The notes beneath the pieces are model-generated. The model was not told where the DNA came from and did not search any database. It saw only the letters and a list, made by a program, of their open reading frames with translations. 21,497 nucleotides of DNA from an uncultured bacterium. GTDB taxonomy: Bacteria; Lernaellota; Lernaellaia; JACKCT01. The position numbers and the translations under genes are program-made. How positions within the stretch are numbered: the first letter of the stretch is position 1; every line of letters begins with the position of its first letter. The stretch is from NCBI GenBank assembly GCA_964591275.1, contig CAZQAE010000078.1, positions 1 through 21,497 of the forward strand, written 5' to 3'. Shown piece after piece: positions 3,810-21,149 of this stretch.

Positions 3810-3924
3810 TTTCGCCAAACCTGAGAAATAAGGATTGACGCTTCTCACACTTATAGGATCTCCCAGCACGTATCCCGCCGCAGATTTTGGATTGAAGGCA
3901 AGTGGCTACGGAGTGCTAAAGTAA

Positions 3925-6101: not shown

Positions 6102-6782
6102 ATGAAAATAGATGTTGATTTTTTTGATTCTGTTCAGCTTTTCAAAGGCCTTATTGGAAATGACGATCCGGAAATAGAATCGCTTATACAGCCTCTTTTC
6201 ATCAAGAAAAAGCAAGCTGCTTTCCGTCCCGGCGATCCATCGGATTCTATTTACGTCATCCGTTCAGGCCGCGTAAAAGTCGGAAAGACAACTGGGGATG
6301 GCCGTGAAATCATTCTCAATTTACTAAAAAAGGGAGATGTGTTCGGAGAAATGGCCTTCCTGGATGACGGGCCACGCGACACCTTCGCGGAAGGATTGGA
6401 GGACACGCAACTCTACGTCATCACCAGAGCGGGTCTTCTCAAGCTCATTAAGCGACGTCCCGCCATTACGTTTCGCTTGACGAAGATCATCGGCAAGCGT
6501 CGCAAGGAAGCGGAAAACAACATGGAAAGCCTACTCTACAAGGGCGTACGTGAACGCCTGGCTGGTTTACTGGTCCGCCTTTCCGAGGACTACGGCATAA
6601 ACGACAGCCGTGGGAGATTGCTTCGCATCAGGATCACGCATCAGGACCTGGCCAATCTCATTGGCTCAAGCCGTGAAACGGTCAGCCTGACCCTGGGCGA
6701 TTTTCGTCGGGAGGGGCATATCGACATCAATGACCGAAAAATCATCATCAGGAAAACGAACTCCCTGACCTCCGTGAATTAA
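6102..6782 (+). CDS. Crp/Fnr-family transcriptional regulator (cNMP-binding domain plus C-terminal HTH)
   Basis: The ORF-track ORF starts at 5991. AAAGGAGG (6089-6096) sits 5 nt before the ATG at 6102, so MKIDVDFFDSVQLFKGL is taken as the true N-terminus. The cNMP-binding motif is GDVFGEMAFLDDGPRDTFAEG. The HTH is ITHQDLANLIGSSRETVSLTLGDFRREG. Confidence 0.85.
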   Translation: MKIDVDFFDSVQLFKGLIGNDDPEIESLIQPLFIKKKQAAFRPGDPSDSIYVIRSGRVKVGKTTGDGREIILNLLKKGDVFGEMAFLDDGPRDTFAEGLEDTQLYVITRAGLLKLIKRRPAITFRLTKIIGKRRKEAENNMESLLYKGVRERLAGLLVRLSEDYGINDSRGRLLRIRITHQDLANLIGSSRETVSLTLGDFRREGHIDINDRKIIIRKTNSLTSVN

Positions 6783-6826
6783 ATCAACCGGGGTGTAAGA
6801 GCAGACAATCCTTTTGATCAGAAAAT

Positions 6827-6873
6827 CCCTTTTAAGGCGCCCAATGATTTGAGCGCCAAAAGGGTTTTTTATT
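6827..6873. terminator. Rho-independent terminator shared by the convergent crp-like and SPFH genes
   Basis: Hairpin CCCTTTT-aa-GGCGC-(loop caatgatttga)-GCGCC-AAAAGGG (6827-6864) followed by TTTTTTATT (6865-6873). The stop codon of the minus-strand SPFH gene (6869-6871) sits inside the T-run. Confidence 0.65.
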
Positions 6874-7669
6874 GTCCCAGGATGAGAGGAAGACCGTCTT
6901 TGCCCGCACCGACAACGACGACCTTGGCATTCGGACTTTGGGCGAGAGCCATTGTCGCCTCTATCCCCTTCCAGCGCAGAAGGTTTTCATTGATGCCGTC
7001 AGAAACGATGCGCTGAAAATCGGCGATGCCCTTGGCTTCCACAGTTTTGCGATCGGCTTCCAGCCTTTCCTTTTCCAATACGTATTTCATCTTCTCGGCT
7101 TCCTGCTTCATGGCCAGTTTGCGCTCGATAGCCTCCGTAACGGATTTCGGAAAATCCATATTACGCAGCATGATCGCTTCAATGACGACGCTTTTCCCTT
7201 TGAGTCTTTCATTCACGCTGTCGAAAATTTTCTTTTCGATCTCCGTGCGACGCAAATACGCCTCAATGCTTTGATAACTGGAGATCACGTCACGGGTTTG
7301 GTTGCGAATAACCGGTCGAATGAGAATTTCGTAATAGCCAGGTCCGATTTCCGAATGCAAAGTAGCAACTTTCCCCGCATCAGGTCGGAATCGAATTGAC
7401 AGGTCGGTGCTAATATTGAGCTGATCCTGGGTCAGGATGGAAAGCTTTTCCTGCTGATCCTTGATCCTCACATCGTAGATGTACATCCTGTTCCAGGGCG
7501 CAATCCAGTGCCACCCCTCGCCGTAGATCGTCGTCACGTCCGTTCCCGCGCGCCAGTTAAAATACACTCCCCGTCCCCCGGACGGCACGGTTGTGCCGCA
7601 GCCGGTCATGAACGAAACCAAGGTGATCAAAACGATAAGCATTGCTGCTTTTCTGATTGCCTGTGCCAT
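6869..7669 (-). CDS. SPFH/band-7 (prohibitin/HflC-like) domain lipoprotein
   Basis: The ORF-track ORF is 6869-7729. The ATG at 7669 has an AAGGAG RBS, giving MAQAIRKAAMLIVLITLVSFMTGC (signal peptide with a lipobox-like MTGC). The body has SPFH-like segments (SILTQDQLNISTDLSIRFR..., EAIMLRNMDFPKSVTEAIERK...) and an Ala/Glu/Lys-rich coiled-coil tail. Confidence 0.75.
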   Translation of the reverse strand: MAQAIRKAAMLIVLITLVSFMTGCGTTVPSGGRGVYFNWRAGTDVTTIYGEGWHWIAPWNRMYIYDVRIKDQQEKLSILTQDQLNISTDLSIRFRPDAGKVATLHSEIGPGYYEILIRPVIRNQTRDVISSYQSIEAYLRRTEIEKKIFDSVNERLKGKSVVIEAIMLRNMDFPKSVTEAIERKLAMKQEAEKMKYVLEKERLEADRKTVEAKGIADFQRIVSDGINENLLRWKGIEATMALAQSPNAKVVVVGAGKDGLPLILGQ

Positions 7670-7772
7670 GGCTGTCTCCTTATGGCGATTTATTCTCGCA
7701 CGGATTTTTTTGCTGCTCATATAACTCAATGAAAAGATGAGTCACCCCTTCTTGAACACAAGAAACAATTTC

Positions 7773-7801: not shown

Positions 7802-7828
7802 GCCTTTTAGAAATATTTGGAGGTTATT

Positions 7829-8395
7829 ATGTCGGTTTATAAACTTCTCGTGCTTTTGACTCTTGCCTTTGTCGCGCTGGCGTGCTGCCTGAATTGCGGC
7901 GACGATGACGACGACAACGATGATGCCTTTTCACCGTATGACGATGATGACGATGTGAACGATGATTCGGATGACGATGACGACGCAGACGATGATATCG
8001 ACGATGATATCGACGACGATGACGTGGACGACGACGTCGATGATGACGACGACGACCAGGACGATCCCTCGTTGGAAAGTTTTGAAAACTCACTGTGCTT
8101 GAATCTGAAAGCAAACGAGCCGCAAAGCATTGACTTCGATTATTCCGACGATGTTCTGACAGTCATCCACCGCAACGGCGTTTTCAACTGCTGCCTGGAT
8201 TATGTCGATGTGGAAATGGTAATTTCAGAAATGACCATCACGCTCAATGAAAACGAATATGCGCCGGAGCCATGCAACTGCGTGTGCCCGACCGACGTCA
8301 CCTCCCGGATTTCAGGATTGGCGGCGGGTAATTACACGATTGACATTTTCGCCAACGGCAATTTAGCGATCAGCGGCGAAACAGTCATTCCCTAG
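7829..8395 (+). CDS. Secreted or lipid-anchored poly-aspartate protein 2: signal peptide, Cys, an Asp tract of about 55 aa, and a Cys-containing beta-rich C-terminal domain
   Basis: The ORF-track ORF is 7817-8395. The ATG at 7829 is preferred because of the GGAGG RBS at 7819-7823. Sequence reads MSVYKLLVLLTLAFVALACCLNCG-DDDDDNDDAFSPYDDDDDVNDDSDDDDDADDDIDDDIDDDDVDDDVDDDDDDQDDP, followed by a 105-aa C-terminal domain. The acidic tract is encoded at 7901-8065. The antisense ORFs 7827-8114 and 7837-8130 are artefacts. Confidence 0.7.
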   Translation: MSVYKLLVLLTLAFVALACCLNCGDDDDDNDDAFSPYDDDDDVNDDSDDDDDADDDIDDDIDDDDVDDDVDDDDDDQDDPSLESFENSLCLNLKANEPQSIDFDYSDDVLTVIHRNGVFNCCLDYVDVEMVISEMTITLNENEYAPEPCNCVCPTDVTSRISGLAAGNYTIDIFANGNLAISGETVIP

Positions 8396-8416: not shown

Positions 8417-8734
8417 TTAGGAACAAGTCGCGACGCAGTCCAGCAATACCTGGCAGTCTGTCTCGAAGGCATGATCGCAATCCCATGCGCATCCCCAGTC
8501 GAAACCCGTTCCGTCGTTGCAGGCGATCAACATCTCGTCCCTATACGTTTCGTTGAGGGTGCCGCCGCAGATATCGTAAACATCGCCAATGATATAGGCG
8601 CATTCAGTTGGCCCCACGTCATCGTCGCCATCATCGTCGTCGTCATCGTCATCGCCGCAGGCGAAACACAGACTCAAAATGACGCCAAGGGCGATTAGAA
8701 GCGCGATTGTCATCGGAAACTTGAAGCTTTTCAT
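8417..8734 (-). CDS. Secreted or lipid-anchored poly-aspartate protein 3: signal peptide, Cys-Gly, an Asp tract of 12 aa, and a 66-aa domain with 8 Cys
   Basis: The ORF-track ORF is 8417-8845. The ATG at 8734 is preferred because of GGAG 9 nt upstream on the minus strand. Sequence reads MKSFKFPMTIALLIALGVILSLCFACG-DDDDDDDDGDDD-VGPTECAYIIGDVYDICGGTLNETYRDEMLIACNDGTGFDWGCAWDCDHAFETDCQVLLDCVATCS. The acidic tract is encoded at 8618-8653 by the reverse complement of a gtcatcgtcgtc repeat. Confidence 0.65.
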   Translation of the reverse strand: MKSFKFPMTIALLIALGVILSLCFACGDDDDDDDDGDDDVGPTECAYIIGDVYDICGGTLNETYRDEMLIACNDGTGFDWGCAWDCDHAFETDCQVLLDCVATCS

Positions 8735-8919
8735 AATAATGACTCCATGGATGATTGACTGTTTGATCAGCACTTTAAAGATTGATTCTCTCGGGCAAAT
8801 TGTCAAGAGAGGAAAGAATGCATTGAAGGTTGAAAAAATCCCCATGCTTCAGATGCCCTTGCAAATTGGACGAAGATAAATGAATTAATGAGTATCGAGG
8901 TATTGACGGCATCTTAAAA

Positions 8920-10989
8920 ATGGCTGCGGCGACATCAATGTGGAATCCAAAGGAAAAATTATACGCTCCCCTGATGATATTTGGCATCGTGCTGATCCTT
9001 TGCCTGCCGATGTTTCTTAATCCAAAGGGAATCCGCTGCGCCGATGACTACCGCGCCGCCGATTGGCTCAATGACATCGGCCACCACCTCACGCTACGGG
9101 AGGGATTGCGCACCTACGGCGAGTTTCCGCTGCGCACGCATCTTTTCGGCGGCGGCTATCCCATTTTGGGTCACCCATCAGACGCCACGCTTTCACCGGC
9201 CTCCTGGTCCTTTCTCATTTTGCCCATCCATATCGCCCTGAAGTTGAACATCCTCATTCTTTTGTGGATCGGCGCTTTCGGCATTTATCTCCTGGCCAGA
9301 TTTCGACTTTCCTTGAAGCCGATATATGCCTTTTTCTCATCGGCCGCTTTTACCTTTTGCGGCTGGTGGCTTTCTTTCGCCCTCACCGGCTTTTACGTGC
9401 AGTCCTATTATCTCCTGACGCCGATGATCCTATATTTCCTCTTAAAACCAAGAGACTCTCTGCGCTCCGGGCTATACGCGGGATTGGGGCTGCTGCTGAT
9501 TTTCCTACAGGCCGGCAATGGTTTTTTAGCCGTTTTGCATTTTCTCATTCTCATAACCTTTTTTCTGGCCGCGCAGGACTCAGACAAAAACCATTCTAGC
9601 TCTCTGGCTCTTGCTTTTGCAGCGATAATCGCCGTATCCGCGGCTATCAGCTATCACGCTAAAATTACATGGATCGGATCCATCATGGTCTGCGTGGGGA
9701 TTGCCTCACTTCCCGTTTTCTGGCGCCCAGCACGCAAGCTGGCTATCGCATGGAAACCTTACCTCATTCGATTATCCATCGCGTGCGCGGTGGTTGTTTT
9801 CGTGGGATGCGCCAAGTGGATTCCCATGACTGACCTGCTCGACAAGGCCCAGTACGCGCACCATGACCTTTTCGCTCAAGGCGACGCATACCAGTTTGGT
9901 CCTGGGGAGCGGACCGACCGCCGCTTTTACTCTTCGCTTCCGGCCTTTCTGGGCCACATCAACAAACCCCTTTCCGCCAGGACGAACTACACTTACGGAT
10001 TTCCTGATGAGGAGGAATACGCGCCGCTCGGCGTGTCATACGGCGTCGCAATAGCCTTTGCCCTGGTCGTCGTTTTCCGATGGACCTCCTACTCGCCCTG
10101 GTTCGCCGCCTGGCTGTTTTATCTTCTCATATGCTTCGGCCCAACGCTGCCCACCGACCCGTACCGATCCCTGATATGGGGACTGCCGGGTTTTTCAAAG
10201 TTTTTTGATCCTTTCAAGTACTTCAATTTTTTCCTCGTTTTGCCCATGACCATCGCTTTCGGGTCCGCGGCGGCTATGGTCGTCAAGAAATTCGGCAAAG
10301 CGAGAATATGGCACGGAATTTTCGCGCTGCTCCTTTGCTGGCCCTTGCTGCAAAGCCTGCCTTTGATGTGGACGCTTTTCGAAAAACCGGACAGCGCACT
10401 AGCGCCGAGGGAATCCTTCCACCAAATTCACCACCTGGAAAAAGCGGAAGATTTGAGACTTGATTACCGGCAGATCCAAGAGAAAAATCTCGGTCTGCTG
10501 CGCAATGAGCGAGGACGCGCCGAAAGCGCCACGGGGTTTAATAATCTCAGGAGGGGCGTAGGCGTCATTGACTGGTATGCCGATCTGTTGCTTCCCGAAA
10601 ACGCCTTGCCAAAACTCTTTGTGCTGCCGGACGGGACGCAGCTTCCCAATCCGAGTTATCTCGGCGAGGCCTGGTGCCTTGACGACGCATGCCGCATCAA
10701 GGATTTTCAAATTACGATGAACACCGTGAAGATTACTTTTGCCGCCAGCAGTGAAACAACGCTCGTCGTCAATCAGAATTACGATCCCGATTTTGTCTCG
10801 GGCTTTGGCAAGCCGCTTGACTATAAGGGTCTATTGTCCATCCAGGTTCCCGGCGAGGGCGATTATGTCGCGGAGTTGAAATACAAACCAACAAAAGTTT
10901 TTGCGGGATTCGCCGTTTCGACAGCATCTCTCATTGTCTGTTTTTTGCTTCTGGCCTTTGCCCGCAAAAAAGAACGAAGCGAAAGCTAA
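8920..10989 (+). CDS. Polytopic integral membrane protein (689 aa), possibly a GT-C/YfhO-like glycosyltransferase
   Basis: At least 12 hydrophobic segments span the first roughly 470 aa. An early loop contains DDYRAADWLNDIGHH...FGGGYPILGHPSD, which faintly resembles the GT-C first-loop D-x-D/HP motifs. A soluble domain of about 180 aa follows, then a final TM helix and KKERSES, an arrangement reminiscent of YfhO. No RBS is evident at 8920 and the ATG at 8938 is an alternative start. The functional call is tentative. Confidence 0.45.
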   Translation: MAAATSMWNPKEKLYAPLMIFGIVLILCLPMFLNPKGIRCADDYRAADWLNDIGHHLTLREGLRTYGEFPLRTHLFGGGYPILGHPSDATLSPASWSFLILPIHIALKLNILILLWIGAFGIYLLARFRLSLKPIYAFFSSAAFTFCGWWLSFALTGFYVQSYYLLTPMILYFLLKPRDSLRSGLYAGLGLLLIFLQAGNGFLAVLHFLILITFFLAAQDSDKNHSSSLALAFAAIIAVSAAISYHAKITWIGSIMVCVGIASLPVFWRPARKLAIAWKPYLIRLSIACAVVVFVGCAKWIPMTDLLDKAQYAHHDLFAQGDAYQFGPGERTDRRFYSSLPAFLGHINKPLSARTNYTYGFPDEEEYAPLGVSYGVAIAFALVVVFRWTSYSPWFAAWLFYLLICFGPTLPTDPYRSLIWGLPGFSKFFDPFKYFNFFLVLPMTIAFGSAAAMVVKKFGKARIWHGIFALLLCWPLLQSLPLMWTLFEKPDSALAPRESFHQIHHLEKAEDLRLDYRQIQEKNLGLLRNERGRAESATGFNNLRRGVGVIDWYADLLLPENALPKLFVLPDGTQLPNPSYLGEAWCLDDACRIKDFQITMNTVKITFAASSETTLVVNQNYDPDFVSGFGKPLDYKGLLSIQVPGEGDYVAELKYKPTKVFAGFAVSTASLIVCFLLLAFARKKERSES

Positions 10990-10999
10990 TGGGAGTTCA

Positions 11000-12115
11000 T
11001 CACAAATTCTCTAGTAGAGCGACACACACCTTTTCGATATCGTCTTCACTGAGAAATTCATGACAGGGCAAACCTATTGCGCATTTATCCCAGCGGCGCG
11101 AGTTGGGAACCTGCTCGTCAGATACGGCACATTGTTTCTTATAATAATCCAGCGAGCTGATCGAACGGGCGGGAACGTTGCACTCTATGCCAGCCTGCCT
11201 CATGGCCGCGATAATCTTTGCTCGCTTCGCGCCCCCCGTCAGAGCTATGAAAAAAGTCTGATGATTCCATATAGTATCTGGCGATGCTTGTGGAAGGAAA
11301 TAAGCGTCGTGGGGACGCAGGCGCTCTCTATACTTAGCGCCGACCCTGACGCGAGCCGCAATGATGCTTTCAATCCGTTCCATTTGCTCAAGACCCACGG
11401 CGCTGGAAATCTCCGGCAGTCGATAGTTCATTCCGGGAAATAACAGGCGTTTGTCGGATACCGAAAAACCGTGCTCGCCATAAGCCCGAACGAATTCCGC
11501 CAGCTTTTCATCATTGGTGAGCACGGCGCCGCCCTCCCCCGTTGTCACGATCTTCCGGGGATGAAAACTCAAGATCGCGGCCAGGCCGGAGCATCCCAGC
11601 GGCTCGCCGTCCGTCATCGTCCCCAGGGCGCAGGCGGAATCCTCCGCCAGAACGGCGTTAATTTCTTTTGCCCATCGCTGAAGGGAGGCAAAATCACAGG
11701 GCAACCCAAATTGATGCACCGCTATGACGAAATCCGGCTTTTTGGTCGCGGCCCAATCCAGTGAATTTTGTGGAATGGAAAAATTATCGTTGTTCACATC
11801 GAGAAAAATCGGCATGGCCCCGAGCACTTCGACCGCACCGGCGGTTGCCGCGAATCCGTAATCGGGTAACGCAACCTTATGTCCCGGTCCGACGCCCAGT
11901 CCCCGCAACATGGCCAAAAGGGCCGATGTTCCCGAGTTTGTCGTCACCGCATAAGAAACCTGGAAATATTCACACAGCGCCCTTTCAAATTTTTCGCGAT
12001 AAACGCCTTGCGTGAGTCGTCCGCTTTGGAGGATGTCGCGAATCGCCGGAAGGCTCGCAACGCTTGAAGAGGGTGACGCCAAACGGATTTTGGGTTCAGG
12101 TTCGGCCATGTTCAC
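11000..12115 (-). CDS. DegT/DnrJ/EryC1/StrS-family PLP-dependent sugar aminotransferase (ArnB-like)
   Basis: Family-typical segments are YAVTTNSGTSALLAMLRGLGVGPGHKVALPDYGFAATAGAVEVLGAMPIFLDV and SFHPRKIVTTGEGGAVLTND, the latter carrying the Lys motif. The start overlaps the upstream epimerase stop by 20 nt. Confidence 0.85.
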   Translation of the reverse strand: MNMAEPEPKIRLASPSSSVASLPAIRDILQSGRLTQGVYREKFERALCEYFQVSYAVTTNSGTSALLAMLRGLGVGPGHKVALPDYGFAATAGAVEVLGAMPIFLDVNNDNFSIPQNSLDWAATKKPDFVIAVHQFGLPCDFASLQRWAKEINAVLAEDSACALGTMTDGEPLGCSGLAAILSFHPRKIVTTGEGGAVLTNDEKLAEFVRAYGEHGFSVSDKRLLFPGMNYRLPEISSAVGLEQMERIESIIAARVRVGAKYRERLRPHDAYFLPQASPDTIWNHQTFFIALTGGAKRAKIIAAMRQAGIECNVPARSISSLDYYKKQCAVSDEQVPNSRRWDKCAIGLPCHEFLSEDDIEKVCVALLENL

Positions 12116-13052
12116 GATACCAGTCCGCCGTTATTTTCAAGCCCGCTTCAAGGTCGATCTTCGCCGAAAAACCCAGAAGCTTTTTGGCTTTGGCGATGTC
12201 GGGTGTCCGCAATAAAATATCCGTGCCGAAATGAGCTTTATGCGTGATCCGGGATTCGCTGTCGGTCGCGACGACGATCAACTCCGCCAGCCGCCGCGCG
12301 GTCACCGCGCCGGTCGCATCGCCAATGTTGATAATCTCATCTCCGACGCCTTCTTGCCTGATCGCAGCCATTGTCGCCGCAATAAAATCATCGACAAAAC
12401 ACCAAGCGCGAACCTGCTCCCCGTCGCCGTAAACCACAATGTCCTCGCCCGCTAGCGCCGCGAGCGTCATATCGCGCACTGCTCCATTTCCCGACTGCCC
12501 CGGTCCGTAGATGTTAAAGGGCCGAAGGCAAACCACCTCCAAGCCCTTTTGCGCGCCCGCCGTCAAGCACAGTTTTTCTCCGGCAATTTTCGACACTGCG
12601 TATGTCCATCGAGGCTCTTTCATATCATCGACGGTCAGCGGCTGATCCTCGTGAGCATTGCCGGCATTTGTCCCGTAAACTTCGCTGGACGAAATGAAAA
12701 TAAGCCGCCGCGTCTTTTCCGTCAGCAACTCGAGGAGATTCATGGCTCCACCGATGTTGACGCGCAACACATCGTATGGCGCTTTATAATAATTCAGCAC
12801 ACCGGCAATCGCCGCCATATGCACGACAATATCGGCGTCGCGCGCAAGCTCCGTCAGCGGCGACCGGCCCAGCACATCGCCCTGGACCAATTCGATCCCG
12901 CTTTGCTTTGCGCGGTTCAGATCGCCGATCGGTTTCCGACGCAGATTGTCCAGCAGGCACACGTCATAGTCCGCGGCAGCCGCCAGCGCGAGGTTCAGGC
13001 CCAAAAAGCCTGCACCGCCCGTAATCAGTATTCTCGATTTTTTCATGGCCAT
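12096..13052 (-). CDS. NAD-dependent epimerase/dehydratase (extended SDR; UDP-sugar 4,6-dehydratase or UDP-glucuronate decarboxylase-like)
   Basis: N-terminal Rossmann motif ILITGGAGFLGLNL and catalytic YAVSKIAGE (Y-x3-K). At 318 aa it is the size of the UXS/ArnA C-terminal domain. Confidence 0.85.
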   Translation of the reverse strand: MAMKKSRILITGGAGFLGLNLALAAAADYDVCLLDNLRRKPIGDLNRAKQSGIELVQGDVLGRSPLTELARDADIVVHMAAIAGVLNYYKAPYDVLRVNIGGAMNLLELLTEKTRRLIFISSSEVYGTNAGNAHEDQPLTVDDMKEPRWTYAVSKIAGEKLCLTAGAQKGLEVVCLRPFNIYGPGQSGNGAVRDMTLAALAGEDIVVYGDGEQVRAWCFVDDFIAATMAAIRQEGVGDEIINIGDATGAVTARRLAELIVVATDSESRITHKAHFGTDILLRTPDIAKAKKLLGFSAKIDLEAGLKITADWYREHGRT

Positions 13053-13147
13053 TTTACTCGTTTACCCTCTGATGGGAGTATTTTCACAAGCCCTGGAAAC
13101 TGTCAACGCGCGAGTCGGCGTACATCCTTGGAAATATCCCTATCCGC

Positions 13148-14566
13148 GTGCTATCTTTCGCGGCGATGAAAAGCACCTCGTCAAACAACGGCCGCCGTTT
13201 CCTCCTCGTTCATCCGGGCGGGCCGCGCCGCGATCTCTTCGACCGCCTGGGACGATCCGACTCGCCGCCCCTGGGCATTCTCTACCTGGCTTCATCTTTG
13301 GAAGCTGCGGGGCATGAGGTCCGCGTTGTCGACTTGAATTTTCCGCGCCATGTAGACAGCATCAAACCTCTTTTGCAAAAATGGAGGCCGCACATCGTCG
13401 GCCTCGGCACACTCGCGCCGTCGTTTCAAGACGTCATGGGCCACGCGCGATCCATACGCAAGCAGTTGCCGAACGACGTTCTCCTCATCGCCGGCGGCCC
13501 AGACGCCACCGCGCGAACCGAATTGTACACGCAGGCGGATATCTTTGACGCCGTGCTTTTCGGCGAAGCGGAAAAGAGCATTGTGCGCCTTGCCGACAGC
13601 TATCCCACTATCCCCCAAGGCGAGGGGATTATTCCCTGCGGCCAAAGCGCCGGGGCCATCCCTGAGCCTTTGGATTCCGATTCCCTGCCTTTCCCCGCCC
13701 GCCATCTGTTGCCCTTGAAAAGATACCGGGGCGGTCCTGCCTACAAGCGGCGTCGATACTCTACAAGCATTTTCACGCACCGTGGCTGCGCCTACAATTG
13801 CTCTTTTTGCGAAAAAAGCGTTCACCACGGAGCGATGCGCTTTCGCTCAGCCGCCAGCATCCATGAAGAAATCCGCCGCATCCGAAGGGATCACGGAATC
13901 CACGACATTCGTTTCGTGGACGACGTGCTGATGATCAGCAAACGCATCCTCGGCGAACTGATCGATCTGATTCGTTATGACGCCGACCCCTTCGACTGGA
14001 TGTGCTGCGGCCGCATCGACCTGATGGATGAAAAAATGCTGGCCGAAATGAAAAAGGCCGGGTGTTACCGTATCGAGATTGGCATCGAAAGCGGCTCGGC
14101 CCGCGTACTGGATTTGGTAAAAAAGGGAACGGCCCCCGGACAGGCCCTGGAGGCCATGCGCAAGGCGCGTGTCGCCGGTATTGAAGTCATCGCCAATTTT
14201 ATCATCGGCTTTCCAACCGAAACCGGAGAGGAAATGGCGCAAACGGTGGACCTGTCGCTCAAAACCGATCCCGACTACGCCGTGTATTTCCTCTTCACTC
14301 CTTTTTCCGACGCACCCATCTCGAAGGATTTCAACCTGGGTTGGGATGACTTCGCGCCGGGATACCGCGCCCCTTCTCCCGATTACCTTGTGCCCTCCGA
14401 CCAAGCGCAGGACATGGTGGACAGCGCCCTGCGTCGTTTTTATTTCCGCCCAGGCTATATCCTCAGGCGCCTTGTCGCCATCCGCAATCCCTGGATTATC
14501 GCCGATCTGGCAGCATGCGCCGGATTATTTTTGTACCGACGGATTAAAAATATCATTTGTTCATGA
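13148..14566 (+). CDS. B12-binding-domain radical SAM enzyme (class B; probable methyltransferase-type)
   Basis: An N-terminal cobalamin-binding Rossmann-like region (FLLVHPG...LGILYLASSLEAAGHEVRVVDLNF...VLLIAGGPDA) precedes a radical SAM core with RGCAYNCSFCE (C-x3-C-x2-C). The start is either the GTG at 13148 (as in the ORF track) or the ATG at 13166. Neither has a clear Shine-Dalgarno sequence. Antisense ORFs 13292-13828 and 13847-14404 are rejected. Confidence 0.8.
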   Translation: MLSFAAMKSTSSNNGRRFLLVHPGGPRRDLFDRLGRSDSPPLGILYLASSLEAAGHEVRVVDLNFPRHVDSIKPLLQKWRPHIVGLGTLAPSFQDVMGHARSIRKQLPNDVLLIAGGPDATARTELYTQADIFDAVLFGEAEKSIVRLADSYPTIPQGEGIIPCGQSAGAIPEPLDSDSLPFPARHLLPLKRYRGGPAYKRRRYSTSIFTHRGCAYNCSFCEKSVHHGAMRFRSAASIHEEIRRIRRDHGIHDIRFVDDVLMISKRILGELIDLIRYDADPFDWMCCGRIDLMDEKMLAEMKKAGCYRIEIGIESGSARVLDLVKKGTAPGQALEAMRKARVAGIEVIANFIIGFPTETGEEMAQTVDLSLKTDPDYAVYFLFTPFSDAPISKDFNLGWDDFAPGYRAPSPDYLVPSDQAQDMVDSALRRFYFRPGYILRRLVAIRNPWIIADLAACAGLFLYRRIKNIICS

Positions 14567-14668
14567 AATTCCAACAGGGCGTCCTGGCCAGAATCTTCGA
14601 TGCTACAAAACAATCCAGTCGCATAAAGAATGAAATCAAAATCGCTTTTTCTTTTTGAGGGTTGTTAG

Positions 14669-15562
14669 GTGCCGTTTCCAGGTGAACTCGCCGCGCTGGG
14701 AACAGCGTGCTGCTGGGTGATCACGGCCATGTCCTTCGAGAGCGCGGGCAAGCGGATCGGATCGCTCGCCGTCAACCTGATACGATTAGTGCTGGCTTTC
14801 TTCTTCCTGGCCACACTCGGAGCACTCACCAGGGGCTTGCCGGCACCGACCGACGCTAGTGCGCATAACTGGTGTTGGCTGTCGATTTCGGGCCTGGTGG
14901 GTTTCACGCTCGGCGATCTCGCACTGTTTAGGGCCTTCGTGCTGATCGGCTCGCGCCGGGCGATCCTGATGATGTCCTTCGTGCCGCCGATGTCGGCGCT
15001 GCTGGGCTGGATTATCCTGGGCGAAGGGCTGAGCGCCGCCGACCTGACCGGTATGGCGCTGACGATCGCAGGCGTGGCGCTGGCGGTGCTGGAACGAAGC
15101 GACAACGCCGATGGCGCTCAAATCAAACCGATGGCGACCGGCATTTTTCTAGCTTTAGCCGGCGCACTGGGGCAGGCCGTAGGGCTAGTGCTGTCCAAGT
15201 ATGGGATGCAGGATTTCAACCCCTTCGCATCGACGCAGATACGGGTCATCGCGGGGGCCGTCGGTTTCGCGGTGATCTTTTCGTTTATCGGCTGGTGGCC
15301 CAAAGTCATTTCGGCGCTGAGGGACACGCCTGCAATGAAACGAGTCGCGCTGGGCGCGTTTTTCGGCCCCTTCCTGGGTGTCTCCCTCTCGCTGCTGGCT
15401 TTGCAGCATATCAAAACCGGGGTCGCCGCTACGCTCATGGCCACCACGCCCGTGCTGATCCTGGCGCCGGCGGCCATCGTGTTCAAAGACAGAGTCACTC
15501 CCAGGGCAATCCTGGGTACGCTGCTGGCGGTTATCGGGGTTTCCGTTCTGGTCTTGTCGTGA
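14669..15562 (+). CDS. EamA/DMT-superfamily transporter (10 predicted TM segments)
   Basis: GTG start with GAGGG 7 nt upstream. Two EamA-like halves are visible (TACCWVITAMSFESAGKRIG...; PMSALLGWIILGEGLSAADLTGMALTIAGVALAV; ...GVAATLMATTPVLILAPAAIVFKDRVTPRAILGTLLAVIGVSVLV). It is noticeably more GC-rich than its neighbours. Confidence 0.8.
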   Translation: MPFPGELAALGTACCWVITAMSFESAGKRIGSLAVNLIRLVLAFFFLATLGALTRGLPAPTDASAHNWCWLSISGLVGFTLGDLALFRAFVLIGSRRAILMMSFVPPMSALLGWIILGEGLSAADLTGMALTIAGVALAVLERSDNADGAQIKPMATGIFLALAGALGQAVGLVLSKYGMQDFNPFASTQIRVIAGAVGFAVIFSFIGWWPKVISALRDTPAMKRVALGAFFGPFLGVSLSLLALQHIKTGVAATLMATTPVLILAPAAIVFKDRVTPRAILGTLLAVIGVSVLVLS

Positions 15563-15593: not shown

Positions 15594-16496
15594 TCATTCG
15601 TAATAGCGCGGCTCGACCTTCCTGCGCCCTGCGGTGCGTTGATATTTTTCTTTGGATTTCCCAATAACAATCACCGCGTAAATCTTTTCTCCTTTTTCGA
15701 GACCAAGGTTTTTTCTAATTCCCTTGTCGTTCTTGATCGCTTCAACAGCAAACCCGATCAGACAGGTTCCCAGACCAGCCGCGTGGGCGGCCAGTAAAAT
15801 ATTTTGCGTCGCCAGCAACGCATCTTCGCAAGGAGTAGCGCTTCCTGTTTTAGCTCCTACTAAAATAGCCGCCGGGGCTTGATGAAACAGCATATCTTTT
15901 CCATCAACATCATAGTCATGCAACGCCTGCTCAACAAATTCATAATAGTCGCGATAATATTTGCCAAGCACGTCCTTCGCAAACAACCGCGATAGGAATC
16001 GAACCGACCTTTTCGATGCAAGGTTGTTGAGTTTGCGGAAGAAACCCGAAATTTTAGATCCCAGTTTTTCCACCGCCTGCGCAGTCGGCAAAATGGTAAA
16101 AGTCCATTGTTGCGTGTTGGAACCGGAGGGGGCAGTCATTCCCGCTTTCACCAGATCCTTGAGTAAATCACGCTCGACCGATTCGTCGGAAAATTTTCTG
16201 CATGAACGCCGCGAACTCATGAGATTTACGAGCGACGCGGCGTCAAACTTACCCGGTTTTAACCAAGTTTTGTCCACATTGAGGGTTTCAAATTTCAAGC
16301 CATCCGCATCAATAAAGGAAATGTCTATAGCCTTTTGGGGACATGACGCCGCGCAATGCCCGCAACCGATGCATAGCGTGGAATCGCCGACCGCTAATTC
16401 ATCGGCCATCGACATAATCTCCCTGGGGCAGACCGGAATACACAATCCACATCCGTTGCACAGGTCCCGGTCGATCTTTATTTTTATTGGTTCCAA
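15594..16496 (-). CDS. 2x[4Fe-4S] ferredoxin-domain / nitroreductase-family fusion protein
   Basis: The N-terminus carries CNGCGLCIPVCP and CIGCGHCAASCP (two CxxCxxCxxxCP clusters). The C-terminal roughly 200 aa is nitroreductase-like (RRSCRKFSDESVERDLLKDLVKAGMTAPSGSNTQQWTF...). The start is an apparent TTG at 16496, because the first Fe-S motif begins at residue 13 and no in-frame ATG lies upstream. Confidence 0.8.
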   Translation of the reverse strand: MEPIKIKIDRDLCNGCGLCIPVCPREIMSMADELAVGDSTLCIGCGHCAASCPQKAIDISFIDADGLKFETLNVDKTWLKPGKFDAASLVNLMSSRRSCRKFSDESVERDLLKDLVKAGMTAPSGSNTQQWTFTILPTAQAVEKLGSKISGFFRKLNNLASKRSVRFLSRLFAKDVLGKYYRDYYEFVEQALHDYDVDGKDMLFHQAPAAILVGAKTGSATPCEDALLATQNILLAAHAAGLGTCLIGFAVEAIKNDKGIRKNLGLEKGEKIYAVIVIGKSKEKYQRTAGRRKVEPRYYE

Positions 16497-16743
16497 AGTC
16501 TTTCCATCCTCATTTTCAAAGTAATTTCAAAAAATCATGGGTTTCTAGCGTGAAACACTACCATAAAAATGAATGCTGCAAAAAAATGGGGGAAACGAGA
16601 TGTTTTTTCAAAACTCGCCAGTTCCATCCCAAAACTGCGATGGGACTCCTTTGGTTCCCCGACCCAGAGTGAGCAATTTTTTGTGAGGTCAAGGGAATAA
16701 GCGCTGCTCTTTCGGCATTGGGATAGCTGCCTATGGACTGTCG

Positions 16744-17802
16744 CTACAGCTTGATATTTGGATGTTTGTCGTAAGGCATCGGTAATACATCCGCGCCATG
16801 CAATGGATCGGCGTATGTCTTAATAAATTCCTTGTCCTCCGACGCATGGCACATGCCCTTCCCTTTTTGCAGGGCGTCCCAATTCGACATGCGGTGGTGG
16901 ATGGACTCAATCGAATCCGTTTTCACATTTCCAAAAGATATCTGGATGAAGGGACACGGCGTCACATCCCCGTAGCAGGTTACGTAAATTTCCGTTGTCC
17001 CGCAGGGGCAGCGAAAATCCTCGCTTCCCAGGTTTCCGTGGAGAAACACATCCGAATCCTCGGCCAACTCATCGAGAATCTTTCGATGCCGCGCCTCCAG
17101 TAACACTTCACGGTTGGCGCTCCATCCACCGGCGGAAGACGGGAAAACCAATCCCAACGTCGCATCGTGCTCCTTGGCCAATTTCAAAACCCTGCCCACG
17201 TTCCCCGCCTCCACCTGGCTGACCGTGGTTGTGAAGCACAAATGTCCACGAACGCCGGGAGTTTCGCGAATGACTTTAAGCGCAGCGAAAACTTTTTCGT
17301 AGAGTCCGGGGATGCCACGCAGTTCGTCATGCTCTTTTGGGACCGGCGAATCGAGGCTGATCTTGAAAAGGTCCGCGCCGGCCTTGCGTAGCGACATGAT
17401 GCGCTCGGAATCGAGCAAGGCCCCGTTCGTATTGATGCCGATAAATGTTTGACGCGGGTGAAAAAAGCTAATGATCTTCTCAAGATTCTTATCGATGAGC
17501 GGCTCGCCGCCGGTGAAATTGACTTCATAAACGCCCATGCGATAGCAGTCATCGCCCAGGCGGCGCAGTTCAACGCTATCCAAACGGCTTCGTGAATTGT
17601 CGATCATTTTCAGCGATGAACATTTCGCACAAGCCGCCTGACAGTCGTACAAAACAGCGTATTCGAGAGCGCTCACCATCGGGTGGCCCCGCACTTTCGA
17701 CAGCGCCAGATTGCGCAGCCCGTTCACGGCAAACAGGGGCTTTTTGACAAGGAACATTCCGAATTTTGGAATGCGCCTGAGTATGTCGATAGGTCGTTTC
17801 AT
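16744..17802 (-). CDS. Radical SAM enzyme with a C-terminal Cys-rich SPASM/twitch-like extension
   Basis: ATG at 17802 with GAGAGAGG about 8 nt upstream. The motifs are YDCQAACAKCS (C-x3-C-x2-C), FTGGEPL, and a C-terminal cluster CPCGTTEIYVTCYGDVTPCP...C. This is typical of rSAM peptide or cofactor maturases, but no substrate gene was identified. Confidence 0.8.
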   Translation of the reverse strand: MKRPIDILRRIPKFGMFLVKKPLFAVNGLRNLALSKVRGHPMVSALEYAVLYDCQAACAKCSSLKMIDNSRSRLDSVELRRLGDDCYRMGVYEVNFTGGEPLIDKNLEKIISFFHPRQTFIGINTNGALLDSERIMSLRKAGADLFKISLDSPVPKEHDELRGIPGLYEKVFAALKVIRETPGVRGHLCFTTTVSQVEAGNVGRVLKLAKEHDATLGLVFPSSAGGWSANREVLLEARHRKILDELAEDSDVFLHGNLGSEDFRCPCGTTEIYVTCYGDVTPCPFIQISFGNVKTDSIESIHHRMSNWDALQKGKGMCHASEDKEFIKTYADPLHGADVLPMPYDKHPNIKL

Positions 17803-18070: not shown

Positions 18071-20323
18071 ATGGATTTCATTTCTGTAAAAATTCCGGCG
18101 CGGTCATTAAACCACTTGTCGCTTCTTAGAAACGCTCGAACCTATTTTTGCTGCTTTATGGCGCTTTTCTGCCTTGGCTTATATCTGGCGGCGACTTCTC
18201 CGCTAATTTATTGGCGCGATTCCGTCGAGTTCGCCATGATCGGCCACAACCTGGACATCGGGCATCCGGCCGGCAGTCCGGTCTTTTCCATGTTCACCAA
18301 ATTCCTTGATTTACTGCCCATCGGCTCCATCGCTTTTCGGGCAACATTATTTTCCATGCTCAGTGCGTTTTTCGCCATATCAGCCCTGGTTTTTACACTT
18401 TTCAGACTGGCTGAATCCTTTAGACATACTGGTTGGAGATTGTGTTTCGGCGCTCTTGTCGCTGTCTGCGCTTTCGCCTTTTCTCCAGCTTTTTTCGATT
18501 GGGCCATTGCGCCCGAAGTGTACGCCGCGCAAGTTCTGGTCGTTTTCCTCCTTATTGCAATGTCGATTGAGTTATTCATCCAGGAGCGTCACGGCGGAGC
18601 CGACAGGCGACTTCTCTTTCTCGCCGGTTTGATTCTGGGATTGGGATGCGGCGTGCACATGGGGACGGGGCTGCTCGCGCCGGGGCTAGCCTGGGTTCTC
18701 ATCATGCCGAATCGATCCCTGCGGCGATTACGAAGCATTTCCCTTTTCGGCCTTTTTGTTTTCATCGGCTTTAGCGTTTACATCTATCTGCCGATCCGGG
18801 CCGCAACGCAGCCGACATTCAACCAGGGCAATCCGCAAACGTGGGGTTTGTTCCTGGGGCACATCACCGGCAGTCGCTATTCGGAAATCATCCACAGCTT
18901 CCCGTGGCCGCGCATCCTGCTCAATCTCCGCGCCCTGGCCGCGCATTTCCCCGACCAGCTCACATGGCCCACGCTGCCTCTGGCTGTCTTCGGCTTAATG
19001 TTTTGCGCCAGGCGAAGTCCGCATTTTCTCATCGGTATCTGTCTATTCGTTTTTGGACATCTCTACCTGTACGTGAAGGATTGGGAAAGAGCCTTCGGCT
19101 ATATCCCGCTATTCGCCCTGGCCGCTGTGCTGACGGGCGTCGGCGCTGTCGCCGCCTCTCATTTCCTTTCGGGCAAAAAGCGATATTTCAGCCCCTGGAT
19201 AGGAATTTCCGCGTGCCTGATCTTTGCATTCATGCTTTTTGTTCACCAGGCTCAGAGAGCTATCCTTGAACGTTCCCACAGCGCGCACGACCTGACACAT
19301 CGCCACGCACGCGGCCTCCTCAATTCATTGCCACACGATGCGCTTTACGTCAGTCATCAGGACGCCAACAGTTATACGATCTTCTACGCGCAATCCGTCG
19401 AACGATATCGGGAGGATGTGGTCCACATCCAACGTGCTTTTCTCCCGCTGCCGGATTATCTGCGTGAACGTTATTCATCCATCGACTGGAGCGGTTACGA
19501 TCCGCAAAAAAGGTTCGGCGTTTACGACTTCTTGGTCGACCAAAGCAAAGTGCAAGAAGCATTCTGGGACTATGGGTGGGAAATGCGCGCCGATGTTCCA
19601 GTCGATGGCCTGGCAACGCACGGTTTCATCTGGCGGATCGCCCAAGACAATTCTTTCAAACCTGATCCGGATCGACGGAGATTAAAGAAATATTTCGGGC
19701 AGGTCATCGCGGAGATGGATTTTCATCCTTACGACTTCACCGTCCGCGAAGTCTATGCCAGGCGCTTTTCGCTATTGGCCAAATATATGTATGACCATCG
19801 CGAGTATGAGCAGGCGGAAAGCGCCATCAACCGGGCGCTTGAAATCCGCCCCCAATACGGCCAGTTATACGCGCAGCTCGGCATCATTGAGGCTGCCAGG
19901 GGAATGCTCGATCAGGCATGGCTAAACGGCGTCCTGGCCACGCAACTCGAACCCGGCCATATCGACAATTGGAACTACCGCGCGCAGTTTGCGATTCGGG
20001 ATAAGAAACCAGACGACGCCCTGTTTGCTTACGAAAAATCACTGGCGCTCAACCGCTGGCAAAGCGGCCCCGCGTTGGGTCTCGCGGAATTTTTGGTGAA
20101 TAAAAAACAATATGCCAAGGCCGCATCGCGAGCCAAAGACGCCCTCGACTGCGCGAAAAACGAACGCGACGAGCATCGAGCCAATAACGTTTTTGCGCGG
20201 GCGCTTGTCGGCCTGGGCCAATGCGCTGACGCCCTCCCGATTATCACAAAACTTAAGGAAATGAATCCTGGCGACGAGACGACGCAAGGGATGCTTGATT
20301 TTTGCCGGGGACAATTGAAATAG
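18071..20323 (+). CDS. DUF2723 (TMEM260-like) GT-C-fold membrane glycosyltransferase with a C-terminal TPR domain
   Basis: The first-loop motif YWRDSVEFAMIGHNLDIGHPAGSPVF matches the DUF2723 signature as I recall it (D-[SG]-x-E-F......G-[IV]-x-H-P-x-G-x-P). About 11 TM segments span residues 1-390. The C-terminal roughly 200 aa is TPR-like (YEQAESAINRALEIRPQYGQLYAQLGIIEA...). The stop at 20321-20323 overlaps or abuts the GT2 gene. Confidence 0.75.
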   Translation: MDFISVKIPARSLNHLSLLRNARTYFCCFMALFCLGLYLAATSPLIYWRDSVEFAMIGHNLDIGHPAGSPVFSMFTKFLDLLPIGSIAFRATLFSMLSAFFAISALVFTLFRLAESFRHTGWRLCFGALVAVCAFAFSPAFFDWAIAPEVYAAQVLVVFLLIAMSIELFIQERHGGADRRLLFLAGLILGLGCGVHMGTGLLAPGLAWVLIMPNRSLRRLRSISLFGLFVFIGFSVYIYLPIRAATQPTFNQGNPQTWGLFLGHITGSRYSEIIHSFPWPRILLNLRALAAHFPDQLTWPTLPLAVFGLMFCARRSPHFLIGICLFVFGHLYLYVKDWERAFGYIPLFALAAVLTGVGAVAASHFLSGKKRYFSPWIGISACLIFAFMLFVHQAQRAILERSHSAHDLTHRHARGLLNSLPHDALYVSHQDANSYTIFYAQSVERYREDVVHIQRAFLPLPDYLRERYSSIDWSGYDPQKRFGVYDFLVDQSKVQEAFWDYGWEMRADVPVDGLATHGFIWRIAQDNSFKPDPDRRRLKKYFGQVIAEMDFHPYDFTVREVYARRFSLLAKYMYDHREYEQAESAINRALEIRPQYGQLYAQLGIIEAARGMLDQAWLNGVLATQLEPGHIDNWNYRAQFAIRDKKPDDALFAYEKSLALNRWQSGPALGLAEFLVNKKQYAKAASRAKDALDCAKNERDEHRANNVFARALVGLGQCADALPIITKLKEMNPGDETTQGMLDFCRGQLK

Positions 20324-21111: not shown

Positions 21112-21149
21112 TCAGTGCTCAGTAATGAATGAAGGAGCGACATTCCTTT

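Follow-up and report, generated by a model that had tools for sequence, protein, structure and literature searches.

Organization of the locus

The window, that is, the whole stretch of 21,497 nucleotides analysed, contains the genes and features below (coordinates, strand, assignment). The list of open reading frames confirms the coordinates of every gene that the preliminary description named.

8920–10989, plus strand: x689, a 689-residue polytopic membrane protein with a GT-C glycosyltransferase fold
11000–12115, minus strand: DegT-family PLP sugar aminotransferase (Pfam DegT_DnrJ_EryC1, 285 bits)
12096–13052, minus strand: extended-SDR nucleotide-sugar 4-oxidoreductase (Pfam Epimerase, 181 bits)
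13053–13165, no strand: intergenic spacer from which the SDR-DegT operon and the radical SAM (rSAM)-EamA operon diverge (from the sequence)
13166–14566, plus strand: rSAM enzyme of class-B architecture (Pfam B12-binding, 56.9 bits, and Radical_SAM, 83.6 bits)
14669–15562, plus strand: EamA/DMT transporter with 10 transmembrane (TM) segments (Pfam EamA, 116 bits, two repeats)
15594–16496, minus strand: 2x[4Fe-4S] ferredoxin fused to a nitroreductase-fold flavoprotein (Pfam Fer4, and Nitroreductase, 106 bits)
16744–17802, minus strand: radical SAM/SPASM enzyme of 352 residues (Pfam Radical_SAM, 54.5 bits, and SPASM, 31.5 bits)
18071–20323, plus strand: TMEM260-like GT-C enzyme with a C-terminal TPR domain (Pfam TMEM260-like, 87 bits, and TPR families)
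20302–21111, plus strand: short GT2 glycosyltransferase (Pfam Glycos_transf_2, 75.8 bits)

The SDR and DegT genes overlap by 20 nt (12096–12115), as described previously, and the SDR is translationally coupled to DegT through this overlap; an overlap of 8–20 nt is kept in orthologous loci. The divergent arrangement of this pair and the rSAM gene also stands, but not the reported spacer length of 95 bp. Gene callers and the orthologue alignment place the rSAM start at ATG 13166 instead of GTG 13148, and the spacer therefore measures about 113 bp (13053–13165). Within it, the minus strand carries a single sigma70-like site (13106–13077), and an Rfam search of the spacer matched no family, the cobalamin riboswitch included. 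According to the gene caller, the GT2 gene probably starts at 20344 rather than 20302, and the TMEM260-like gene at 18158 rather than 18071, giving a protein of 721 residues. Genes for precursor supply, such as one for UDP-glucose dehydrogenase, are absent from the window.

Features of the encoded proteins

The Pfam families proposed earlier for the aminotransferase, the SDR and the rSAM enzyme were all recovered. The best NCBIfam matches of DegT are PseC (258 bits), LegC (186 bits) and ArnB (179 bits), all under their cut-offs, and its best PDB matches are 9bgp and 8vr3/8vr5, followed by ArnB and perosamine synthetase. The catalytic lysine is present in the motif SFHPRK, and the protein is probably a sugar aminotransferase acting at C4. 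The closest PDB match of the SDR is 8vr2 (239 bits), with human UXS1 second (119 bits) and RmlB (about 85 bits) and ArnA (about 82 bits) ranking below. Its S-[T/S]-S-E and YxxxK motifs and R282 are invariant across 121 homologues. The SDR is predicted to be a UXS/ArnA-like decarboxylase or dehydratase, in line with the family given in the preliminary description, although the motif fits decarboxylases and GMD-type dehydratases alike and does not separate the two. The family is very large (4989 matches at E<1e-30), and some members lie in Wzx/Wzy clusters without an rSAM gene. Because no enzyme reaches an equivalog cut-off, substrates are not assignable.

The rSAM enzyme consists of an N-terminal B12-binding-type Rossmann domain, well above the Pfam cut-off of 32.1 bits, and an rSAM barrel. 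Its CxxxCxxC motif is canonical, and C208, C212 and C215 are invariant in the orthologue alignment. The orthologue group is tight (48–93% identity), and the next relatives fall to about 33%. The nearest fold match of the AF2 model (pLDDT 91) is AprD4, with a TM-score of 0.73–0.75, followed by MgmA, TsrM, OxsB, CysS and TokK. AprD4 is also the top PDB match by sequence (58 bits), and the two proteins are about 22% identical. A diol dehydratase that neither methylates nor uses cobalamin, AprD4 acts on the aminosugar paromamine. None of the NCBIfam methylase models reaches its cut-off (PhpK 122/600, HpnR 102/650, RiPP C-MT 83/282; score/cut-off), and the enzyme likewise remains below those of AprD4 (76/500), HpnJ (100/578) and BchE (119/481). 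The HpnJ model aligns nearly in full (residues 84–441).

The x689 protein has the GT-C fold; its family is without a Pfam model and is distantly related to YfhO/DUF2079. In the SPASM enzyme the cysteines C54x3C58x2C61 are invariant, and the best PDB match, BlsE, is weak (31 bits). The EamA protein displays about 10 hydrophobic segments and is a candidate flippase for a lipid-linked sugar. The GT2 enzyme (255 residues) contains DDGS and DID motifs but no C-terminal TM helix pair; its similarity, albeit weak and under cut-off, to Dol-P-hexose transferase, PpgS and ArnC indicates that it is probably a polyprenyl-phosphate sugar synthase. The ferredoxin-nitroreductase fusion could pass electrons to the rSAM enzymes.

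Conservation of the gene neighbourhood

Orthologues of the rSAM enzyme (44–57% identical proteins) directly adjoin SDR and DegT orthologues (44–56% identity) in at least eight other genomes, and the trio is therefore not a chance grouping. The pair lies immediately beside the orthologous rSAM gene in L001, L002, L004, L010, L059, L060 and L068; in L060 this adjacency is retained in a rearranged gene order, and L012 keeps DegT alone and not the SDR. The link is nevertheless modular. Six loci of group B combine the rSAM, the SPASM rSAM and x689 with WD40, cytochrome-c-like and unassigned proteins, with no DegT, SDR or GT2 gene within 10 kb of the rSAM gene. Similarity of SDR (72%) and DegT (62%) peaks in L063, a genome that has no orthologous rSAM and whose SDR-DegT pair is found next to a B12-rSAM only 27% identical to that of the window; in L066 the pair adjoins yet another rSAM. 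Together, the group B loci, L063 and L066 go half-way towards the refutation that the preliminary description had itself set out. The rSAM genes of L063 and L066 belong to two further class-B-like subfamilies, so 4-amino-sugar genes have come to lie with a radical enzyme independently more than once. Pairs of B12-type and SPASM rSAM genes also occur in non-sugar contexts (L076).

The trio on which the preliminary description was centred is thus conserved, but the steadier partners of the rSAM enzyme had been overlooked. Its steadiest neighbours are proteins of the x689 family, which adjoin it in both group A and group B; the group C locus L021 has the same arrangement, and the adjacency extends down to an rSAM identity of 37%. 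The SPASM enzyme accompanies the B12-type rSAM (and x689) in the two closer clades, with orthologues of 47–61% identity in most group A and group B loci. Among the loci compared, EamA is limited to the window, L001 and L061, and flippase-like neighbours recur, with LPG_synthase_TM in L002, L068, L016 and L021. The ferredoxin-nitroreductase fusion is not conserved beyond the window clade, and the TMEM260-like enzyme is missing from the other groups. These three proteins and the GT2 of the window do not extend beyond the window clade, so conservation does not cover the route as a whole. Sister loci add genes for a GT2 (best matches AglJ/PpgS/ArnC), a deacetylase-like protein, a carbamoyltransferase, a UDP-GlcNAc 3-dehydrogenase-like protein, a second DegT and an acetyltransferase, all of which are sugar-tailoring functions. 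In several of these loci the rSAM gene adjoins one for a small SAM methyltransferase of the ordinary kind. Wza- and Wzc-like export genes are located downstream of the island in L001.

Proposed pathway, radical reaction and related systems

Since the island joins two rSAM enzymes to ordinary enzymes for 4-amino sugars and to glycosyltransferases of the lipid-carrier type, its product is probably an unusual radical-tailored surface sugar. We give about even weight to the reading of the window as a modular cell-envelope glycosylation island of the Arn or "three-component" type, whose sugar is tailored by the rSAM enzymes. Family and fold assignments, catalytic motifs and the conserved neighbourhood are established directly, and from them we infer the following route. 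A nucleotide sugar would be oxidized at C4 by the SDR, with decarboxylation or dehydration, and the resulting 4-keto sugar transaminated by DegT. The short GT2 would load the 4-amino sugar onto polyprenyl phosphate, the EamA protein would flip the lipid-linked sugar across the membrane, and x689, the TMEM260-like TPR GT-C or both would transfer it to a periplasmic acceptor (protein, polysaccharide or lipid). The B12-type and SPASM rSAM enzymes would tailor the sugar by radical chemistry on the nucleotide or lipid carrier, with electrons that may come from the ferredoxin-nitroreductase fusion. A GT-C enzyme beside the rSAM implies a lipid-linked sugar donor, and AprD4, counted as a precedent for an rSAM acting on an aminosugar, supports the overall reading. 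HpnJ and Cds are precedents for rSAM action on aminosugars or lipid-linked sugars (PMC13459092). Weighing against the reading are the missed equivalog cut-offs, the group B loci, L063 and L066, the parts restricted to the window clade, the lack of a precursor gene and the non-sugar rSAM pairs of L076. The earlier interpretation is thus partly supported: the GT2, EamA and GT-C parts fit the polyprenyl-phosphate route it suggested, and a literature search turned up no published account of a cassette like this one, as it had stated.

The same interpretation took the rSAM for a cobalamin-dependent C-methyltransferase of the GenK/Fom3 type, yielding a C-methylated 4-amino sugar by an Arn-like route. 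C-methylation is now one option among several, and a doubtful one. Most characterized class-B enzymes are methylases, as are the structural neighbours MgmA, TsrM, CysS and TokK, and the B12-binding score, the canonical cysteine motif, the class B fold and the adjacency to SDR-DegT are all consistent with it. Against it, the methylase cut-offs are not approached, the closest match by sequence and fold neither methylates nor binds cobalamin, and the sequence does not reveal cobalamin binding; the riboswitch-free spacer and the small methyltransferases in sister loci also argue against it. Alternatively, and tentatively, the enzyme could be a non-methylating one acting on an aminosugar, as a 1,2-diol dehydratase (deoxygenation), a ring-contracting (carbocycle-forming) enzyme or an epimerase, on the models of AprD4 and HpnJ/Cds, with the SDR and DegT handling the resulting or preceding keto intermediate. 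The AprD4 match and the extent of the HpnJ alignment point this way, as do sister loci whose GT2, deacetylase-like gene and HpnJ-like rSAM (159 bits) mirror hopanoid synthesis, where GlcNAc becomes GlcN and then a cyclitol through the action of HpnI, HpnK and HpnJ (PMC13459092). However, both family cut-offs are far off, identity to AprD4 is low, and the HpnJ-like paralogue is a separate gene missing from the window. The remaining probability falls to other reactions, or to rSAM enzymes that do not act on the SDR/DegT sugar.

One such case, rather unlikely, is that the rSAM, SPASM and x689 genes form a module that modifies, for instance, a membrane lipid, polyprenol or periplasmic protein and adjoins the sugar genes merely because envelope genes cluster. 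Group B and C loci pair the rSAM with an x689-family protein without sugar-nucleotide genes within 10 kb, SDR-DegT occurs without the orthologous rSAM in L063 and L066, and lipid-related LPG_synthase_TM and PEMT-like neighbours occur. Yet immediate adjacency survives about 50% protein identity and the L060 rearrangement, two other B12-like rSAMs have been recruited independently to the same SDR-DegT pair, which points to a common class of substrate, and the GT-C would need a lipid-linked sugar donor anyway. Maturation of a ribosomal peptide is highly improbable. B12-rSAM C-methylases and SPASM maturases characteristically occur in RiPP clusters, the SPASM domain is present, and weak NCBIfam matches include ApyD (118 bits), GeoRSP (95 bits) and sactipeptide and mycofactocin maturases, but all scores lie far under cut-off and the genes nearby encode sugar enzymes and glycosyltransferases. 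Neither rSAM in the window adjoins a credible precursor ORF or is accompanied by a protease or leader-recognition gene, and intergenic gaps in L058 and L059 are about 90 bp or less. Equally remote is a conventional pathway for an O-antigen or capsule sugar, with a housekeeping rSAM (e.g. BchE-like) that is unrelated to it and lies nearby by chance; the rSAM-free Wzx/Wzy clusters of the SDR family and the export genes of L001 would suit this reading. The conserved synteny in at least eight diverged genomes disfavours it; the BchE score is low, and the window lacks Wzx, Wzy and an initiating transferase.

Arn (PmrHFIJKLM; ArnA-Cter, ArnB, ArnC, ArnD, ArnE/F and ArnT), which modifies lipid A with L-Ara4N, is a close known pathway. 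The island, which had been likened to Arn, is not an Arn system, with scores far too low for the equivalogs (ArnA 103/777, ArnB 179/631, ArnC 42/529), no formyltransferase domain and no ArnD, GT-C enzymes of other families (YfhO/DUF2079-related; TMEM260-like with TPR) and two additional rSAM enzymes. AprD4 (PDB 6fd2), the closest solved relative of the rSAM, has the same two-domain architecture. With AprD3 it catalyses the C3'-deoxygenation of paromamine in apramycin biosynthesis, AprD4 partnering with a reductase. AprD4 comes from a natural-product cluster of actinomycetes, and the molecule it acts on is a pseudodisaccharide intermediate of antibiotic synthesis rather than a sugar linked to a nucleotide or lipid. 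GenK, GenD1 and Fom3 combine a B12-binding domain with an rSAM domain as well, but act in secondary-metabolite clusters, and their kinship to the window enzyme is at class level. GenK and GenD1 methylate aminosugar carbons (PMC4039129, PMC4340712).

In hopanoid side-chain synthesis, a sugar is attached to the lipid by HpnI (GT2), its amino group exposed by HpnK (deacetylase) and the amino sugar then remodelled by HpnJ, a B12-type rSAM (PMC13459092). The similar sub-module of the sister loci differs in that its rSAM falls short of the HpnJ cut-off of 578, its deacetylase is of the Polysacc_deac_1 type and hopanoid genes are absent; the window itself lacks this sub-module. Three-component extracytoplasmic systems comprise GtrA/GtrB/Gtr*, CsbB-GtcA-YfhO and pentofuranose systems (PMC5836110, PMC8035078, PMC11127046), and among the results listed by a search joining their terms with "radical SAM", no paper contained "radical SAM". 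The window departs from them in its flippase candidate, a 10-TM EamA protein and not GtrA/GtcA, and in the dedicated genes for amino-sugar synthesis and the pair of rSAM enzymes embedded in it. It has in common with them a short GT2, probably a polyprenyl-phosphate sugar synthase, together with a candidate flippase for a small molecule or lipid and a transferase of the GT-C type, and the x689 family is distantly related to their member YfhO and to DUF2079.

Gene organization of the island

Between 8.9 and 21.1 kb, the ORF list, gene calls and Pfam/NCBIfam profiles delineate four operon-like units. The genes of this stretch, referred to as the island, are arranged as follows:

8920-10989, + strand: x689, a 689-aa GT-C fold membrane protein, convergent with the DegT gene
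13052-12096, - strand: extended SDR
12115-11000, - strand: DegT aminotransferase, following the SDR with a 20-nt overlap
13166-14566, + strand: B12-binding radical SAM enzyme (B12-rSAM)
14669-15562, + strand: EamA protein, following the B12-rSAM
17802-16744, - strand: SPASM radical SAM enzyme (SPASM rSAM)
16496-15594, - strand: ferredoxin-nitroreductase fusion, following the SPASM rSAM
18158-20323, + strand: TMEM260-like GT-C with TPR
20344-21111, + strand: GT2, following the TMEM260-like GT-C

The Pfam assignments of the preliminary description were all borne out by the profile search, and only start codons were adjusted. The divergent layout of the B12-rSAM and SDR genes described there stands, but the spacer between them, given as 95 bp, measures approximately 113 bp with the rSAM start at ATG 13166, as placed by gene calls and orthologue alignment. 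Its SDR side carries a single sigma70-like site. RNA-family and tRNA searches found no rRNA, tRNA or Rfam element, cobalamin riboswitch included, in the window.

The region at 32-7729 encodes a LysM protein, a glycogen/starch synthase, a PatA_N(DUF4388)-TPR protein, a Crp-family regulator and a Band 7 protein. Synteny with the related locus L063 extends over the Band7/Crp/PatA_N block, which marks the insertion point of the island. Just upstream of x689, two small proteins (7817-8395, + strand; 8417-8845, - strand) that belong to no Pfam family display an N-terminal hydrophobic signal, a lipobox-like Cys and long poly-Asp tracts (e.g. CGDDDDDNDD...), and look like acidic lipoproteins; they could be acceptors or unrelated. 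In L001, a sister contig that is 93% identical, a 178-aa gene with no Pfam hit (13463-13999) is located between the ferredoxin-nitroreductase and SPASM rSAM genes, at a position that in the window is a spacer of just 247 bp (16497-16743).

Enzymes encoded by the island

The B12-rSAM comprises an N-terminal B12-binding-type Rossmann domain (Pfam B12-binding, 56.9 bits; cut-off 32.1) followed by an rSAM barrel, and the cysteines of its CxxxCxxC cluster motif (C208, C212, C215) are invariant in 34 orthologues. The architecture is that of class B, with cobalamin binding and methyl transfer as possible activities. The structural model (pLDDT 91) is closest to AprD4, which is the nearest solved structure in both sequence and fold (TM 0.73-0.75). 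Next in rank, at TM 0.65-0.71, are the methylases MgmA, TsrM, CysS and TokK and OxsB, a ring-contracting enzyme. AprD4 shares the two-domain architecture, yet is cobalamin-free, and acts as a 1,2-diol dehydratase on the aminosugar paromamine. Although AprD4 is the best PDB neighbour, the score against the AprD4 equivalog NF033070 (76.4 bits) falls below its cut-off of 500, and the enzyme scores well short of the cut-off with every NCBIfam model. Identities as BchE, PhpK, HpnR or HpnJ were rejected on scores far under the cut-offs. Paralogous B12-binding rSAM genes with 25-30% identity to the B12-rSAM stand in tandem, four to five at a time, in L041, L042, L044, L046, L048, L049, L051 and L052; some of these loci belong to FEN-1099/Lernaellota-type MAGs that also have the island.

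The second radical SAM enzyme (16744-17802) is a SPASM/twitch member that combines the CxxxCxxC motif, with C54, C58 and C61 invariant, and a C-terminal Cys-rich SPASM domain (Pfam 31.5 bits; cut-off 21.5). In L076 and L082 (3600-11100), a remoter SPASM rSAM (approximately 40% identity) likewise has a B12-like rSAM as its partner, among 2-hydroxyacyl-CoA dehydratase (HGD-D), BcrAD activator, amidohydrolase and FAD halogenase-like genes. The rSAM duo is therefore reused in non-sugar contexts, and such distant pairs were set aside as uninformative on the island because of their 2-hydroxyacyl-CoA dehydratase-like surroundings.

DegT (Pfam DegT, 285 bits) retains the PLP-binding lysine of the SFHxxK motif in the form SFHPRK, and is therefore a true aminotransferase rather than a dehydratase. 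It is closest to the C4-aminotransferases, with PseC (258 bits) outscoring ArnB (179 bits) in NCBIfam, and its score against the ArnB equivalog NF008658 (178.5 bits) is below the cut-off of 631. Among PDB entries, 9bgp and 8vr3/8vr5 rank first, followed by ArnB and perosamine synthetase.

The best solved relative of the SDR is 8vr2 (239 bits), an entry with a generic name. For 8vr2, 8vr3, 8vr5 and 9bgp, the nearest solved relatives of the SDR and DegT, searches of the literature on the PDB codes and on related topics found no paper. The SSSEVYG and YAVSK motifs of the SDR, along with an Arg that corresponds in position to the carboxylate-site Arg of UXS, are invariant across 121 homologues. 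Human UXS1 (119 bits) scores above RmlB (approximately 85) and ArnA (approximately 82) in the PDB, whereas in NCBIfam a dTDP-glucose dehydratase model ranks first (142 vs 112 bits). What the SDR has in common with the ArnA C-terminal domain is limited to the generic T/S-S-E, YxxxK and Arg motif, and its match to the UDP-GlcA oxidative decarboxylase model of that domain, NF005998 (102.7 bits), is below the cut-off of 777. GDP-mannose dehydratases carry the TSE motif too. Judged by sequence, the SDR is most likely a UXS/ArnA-like decarboxylase, with GMD-type dehydration as the alternative. An RmlB-type 4,6-dehydratase was rejected, as the TDE motif is absent.

The GT-C fold transferase required by three-component periplasmic glycosylation systems is present in the island. 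The x689 family has no Pfam or NCBIfam model; of 1.84 billion cluster representatives, 5828 are related to it at E<=1e-3, and some variants are fused to TPR repeats or are of double length (approximately 1330 aa). A GT2 domain is present in the 20344-21111 product, whose weak best matches include Dol-P-hexose transferase, PpgS and ArnC, all under cut-off (41.6 bits against the ArnC Und-P-L-Ara4FN transferase NF007986; cut-off 529). In L001, Wza-like (Poly_export/SLBB) and Wzc/BY-kinase-like proteins are encoded directly after GT2 (19021-21401), beyond the 3' end of the window, which makes an exported polysaccharide a possible acceptor for the island. For the dedicated flippase of such systems (GtrA/GtcA or ArnE/F type), the sole candidate in the window is the 10-TM EamA/DMT protein, to which we assign this role by inference and which is confined to the window, L001 and L061. 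LPG_synthase_TM proteins (MprF/HpnL-type), which adjoin the rSAM or the x689 family in L016 (8889-9824), L021 (4899-9825) and L002 (3723-4703), form a further flippase-like partner in addition to EamA.

Conservation of the gene associations

Related loci were fetched via three different genes (rSAM, SDR and SPASM rSAM), and all cluster genes were mapped onto them by tblastn. The rSAM orthologue group is sharply delimited, with identities of 48-93% followed by a drop to approximately 33%. Group A consists of the window and L001, together with L002, L004, L010, L012, L059 (Candidatus Lernaella stagnicola, phylum Lernaellota), L060 and L068. Except in L012, which has DegT only and no SDR, orthologues of both SDR and DegT (44-56% identity) directly adjoin the rSAM; the orientation is mostly divergent, and L060 is rearranged with adjacency kept. 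This adjacency is far beyond chance and survives approximately 50% protein divergence and one rearrangement.

The SPASM rSAM is present in most group A loci. Outside the clade formed by the window, L001 and L061, group A mostly has an extended cassette with a carbamoyltransferase, a 226-aa GT2 (AglJ/PpgS/ArnC-like), a deacetylase-like protein, a PP-loop-like protein, a ~57-aa ORF and an HpnJ-like rSAM (159 bits). Most of these extended loci add a UDP-GlcNAc 3-dehydrogenase-like gene and a second DegT, and most a hexapeptide acetyltransferase. A conserved sub-cassette that is not in the window is found in L059 (13112-19156), L066 (5308-9786) and L068 (1-5224). It encodes the carbamoyltransferase (not in L066), the 226-aa GT2, the deacetylase-like protein, a PP-loop/QueC-like 273-aa protein, the ~57-aa ORF, which is hydrophobic, and the HpnJ-like rSAM, and mirrors the logic of hopanoid HpnI/HpnK/HpnJ.

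The association of the rSAM with the sugar genes, on which the preliminary description built a trio that could form a C-methylated amino sugar, is kept in group A but not in all relatives. The six loci of group B, from MAGs labelled 'Rickettsiales', contain the rSAM, the SPASM rSAM, a small methyltransferase and x689; no DegT or SDR occurs within 10 kb in any of the six, the neighbours being WD40, cytochrome-c-like and unknown proteins. In group C, where rSAM identity is 37-41%, both loci examined (L016 and L021) have an LPG_synthase_TM gene divergent from the rSAM, and an x689-family protein lies near the rSAM in L021 (222 bits to the x689 profile). Conversely, L063, which shares the Band7/Crp/PatA_N flank and whose SDR (72%) and DegT (62%) are the most similar, carries a non-orthologous B12-rSAM (27% identity; best match BchE, 151 bits) and a PEMT-like membrane methyltransferase (12416-14661), and lacks x689, SPASM rSAM, EamA and the second GT-C. 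In L066, the SDR-DegT pair is beside the HpnJ-like cassette only. The parts of the island are separable modules. That one and the same SDR-DegT pair has recruited three unrelated B12-type rSAMs speaks for a substrate class common to them, and the steadiest partner of the rSAM is x689, a GT-C, which implies a lipid-linked sugar donor.

Proposed route and relation to known systems

We consider the chances about even that the island encodes a route of periplasmic glycosylation, similar to Arn or to the three-component systems, whose 4-amino sugar is tailored by radical SAM enzymes. A more far-reaching and less likely version, put forward only tentatively, is an undescribed pathway of Lernaellota-like and other uncultured bacteria. 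Here a 4-amino sugar would be remodelled by the two rSAMs while nucleotide- or polyprenyl-phosphate-linked, through C-methylation, deoxygenation or contraction to an aminocyclitol, and a new GT-C family related to YfhO/DUF2079 would place it on a periplasmic acceptor.

The reaction of the B12-rSAM divides the readings further. Within the glycosylation reading, C-methylation, to which the fold matches with MgmA, TsrM, CysS and TokK correspond, has a modest chance. It competes with AprD4-like deoxygenation, HpnJ/Cds-like ring contraction, for which HpnJ and Cds provide precedent (PMC13459092), or epimerisation, which together are only slightly more probable; AprD4 is the closest structure, at a score under its equivalog cut-off. 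An independent rSAM/GT-C module, apart from SDR-DegT, would match the composition of group B and has a lower chance, the adjacency seen in group A speaking against it. The two rSAMs might also belong to RiPP maturation, which is unlikely and was rejected, as no credible precursor ORF was seen beside either of them in the window. An O-antigen pathway of the ordinary kind, with the rSAM as a mere bystander, is unlikely in view of the conserved synteny.

To our knowledge, rSAM sugar tailoring is hardly known outside antibiotic pathways (gentamicin, apramycin, butirosin, blasticidin) except for hopanoid and calditol head groups. If the proposed glycosylation route is correct, such tailoring would operate in primary envelope biogenesis instead of antibiotic biosynthesis, and a conserved envelope-glycosylation island with two rSAMs would extend rSAM chemistry to cell-surface glycans of uncultured anaerobes. 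The island would predict a new sugar or cyclitol structure and give the first functional handle on the large unannotated x689 GT-C family. The occurrence of the SDR-DegT pair next to three distinct B12-type rSAMs provides a natural experiment for assigning rSAM reactions.

A search of the literature on B12-rSAM with DegT, ArnT, GT-C or YfhO found no cassette joining such systems to radical SAM, and radical SAM is not mentioned in PMC12624080. Every Arn equivalog cut-off (ArnA, ArnB, ArnC) is missed by a large margin in the island, and Pfam/NCBIfam searches found no Formyl_trans or Polysacc_deac gene in the window, that is, neither an ArnA formyltransferase domain nor an ArnD deformylase. Both GT-Cs of the island appear to belong to families other than those of the Arn and Gtr/CsbB-GtcA-YfhO transferases. 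The island would work similarly to Arn and to the Gtr or CsbB-GtcA-YfhO systems (PMC5836110, PMC8035078, PMC11127046), and is a member of neither.
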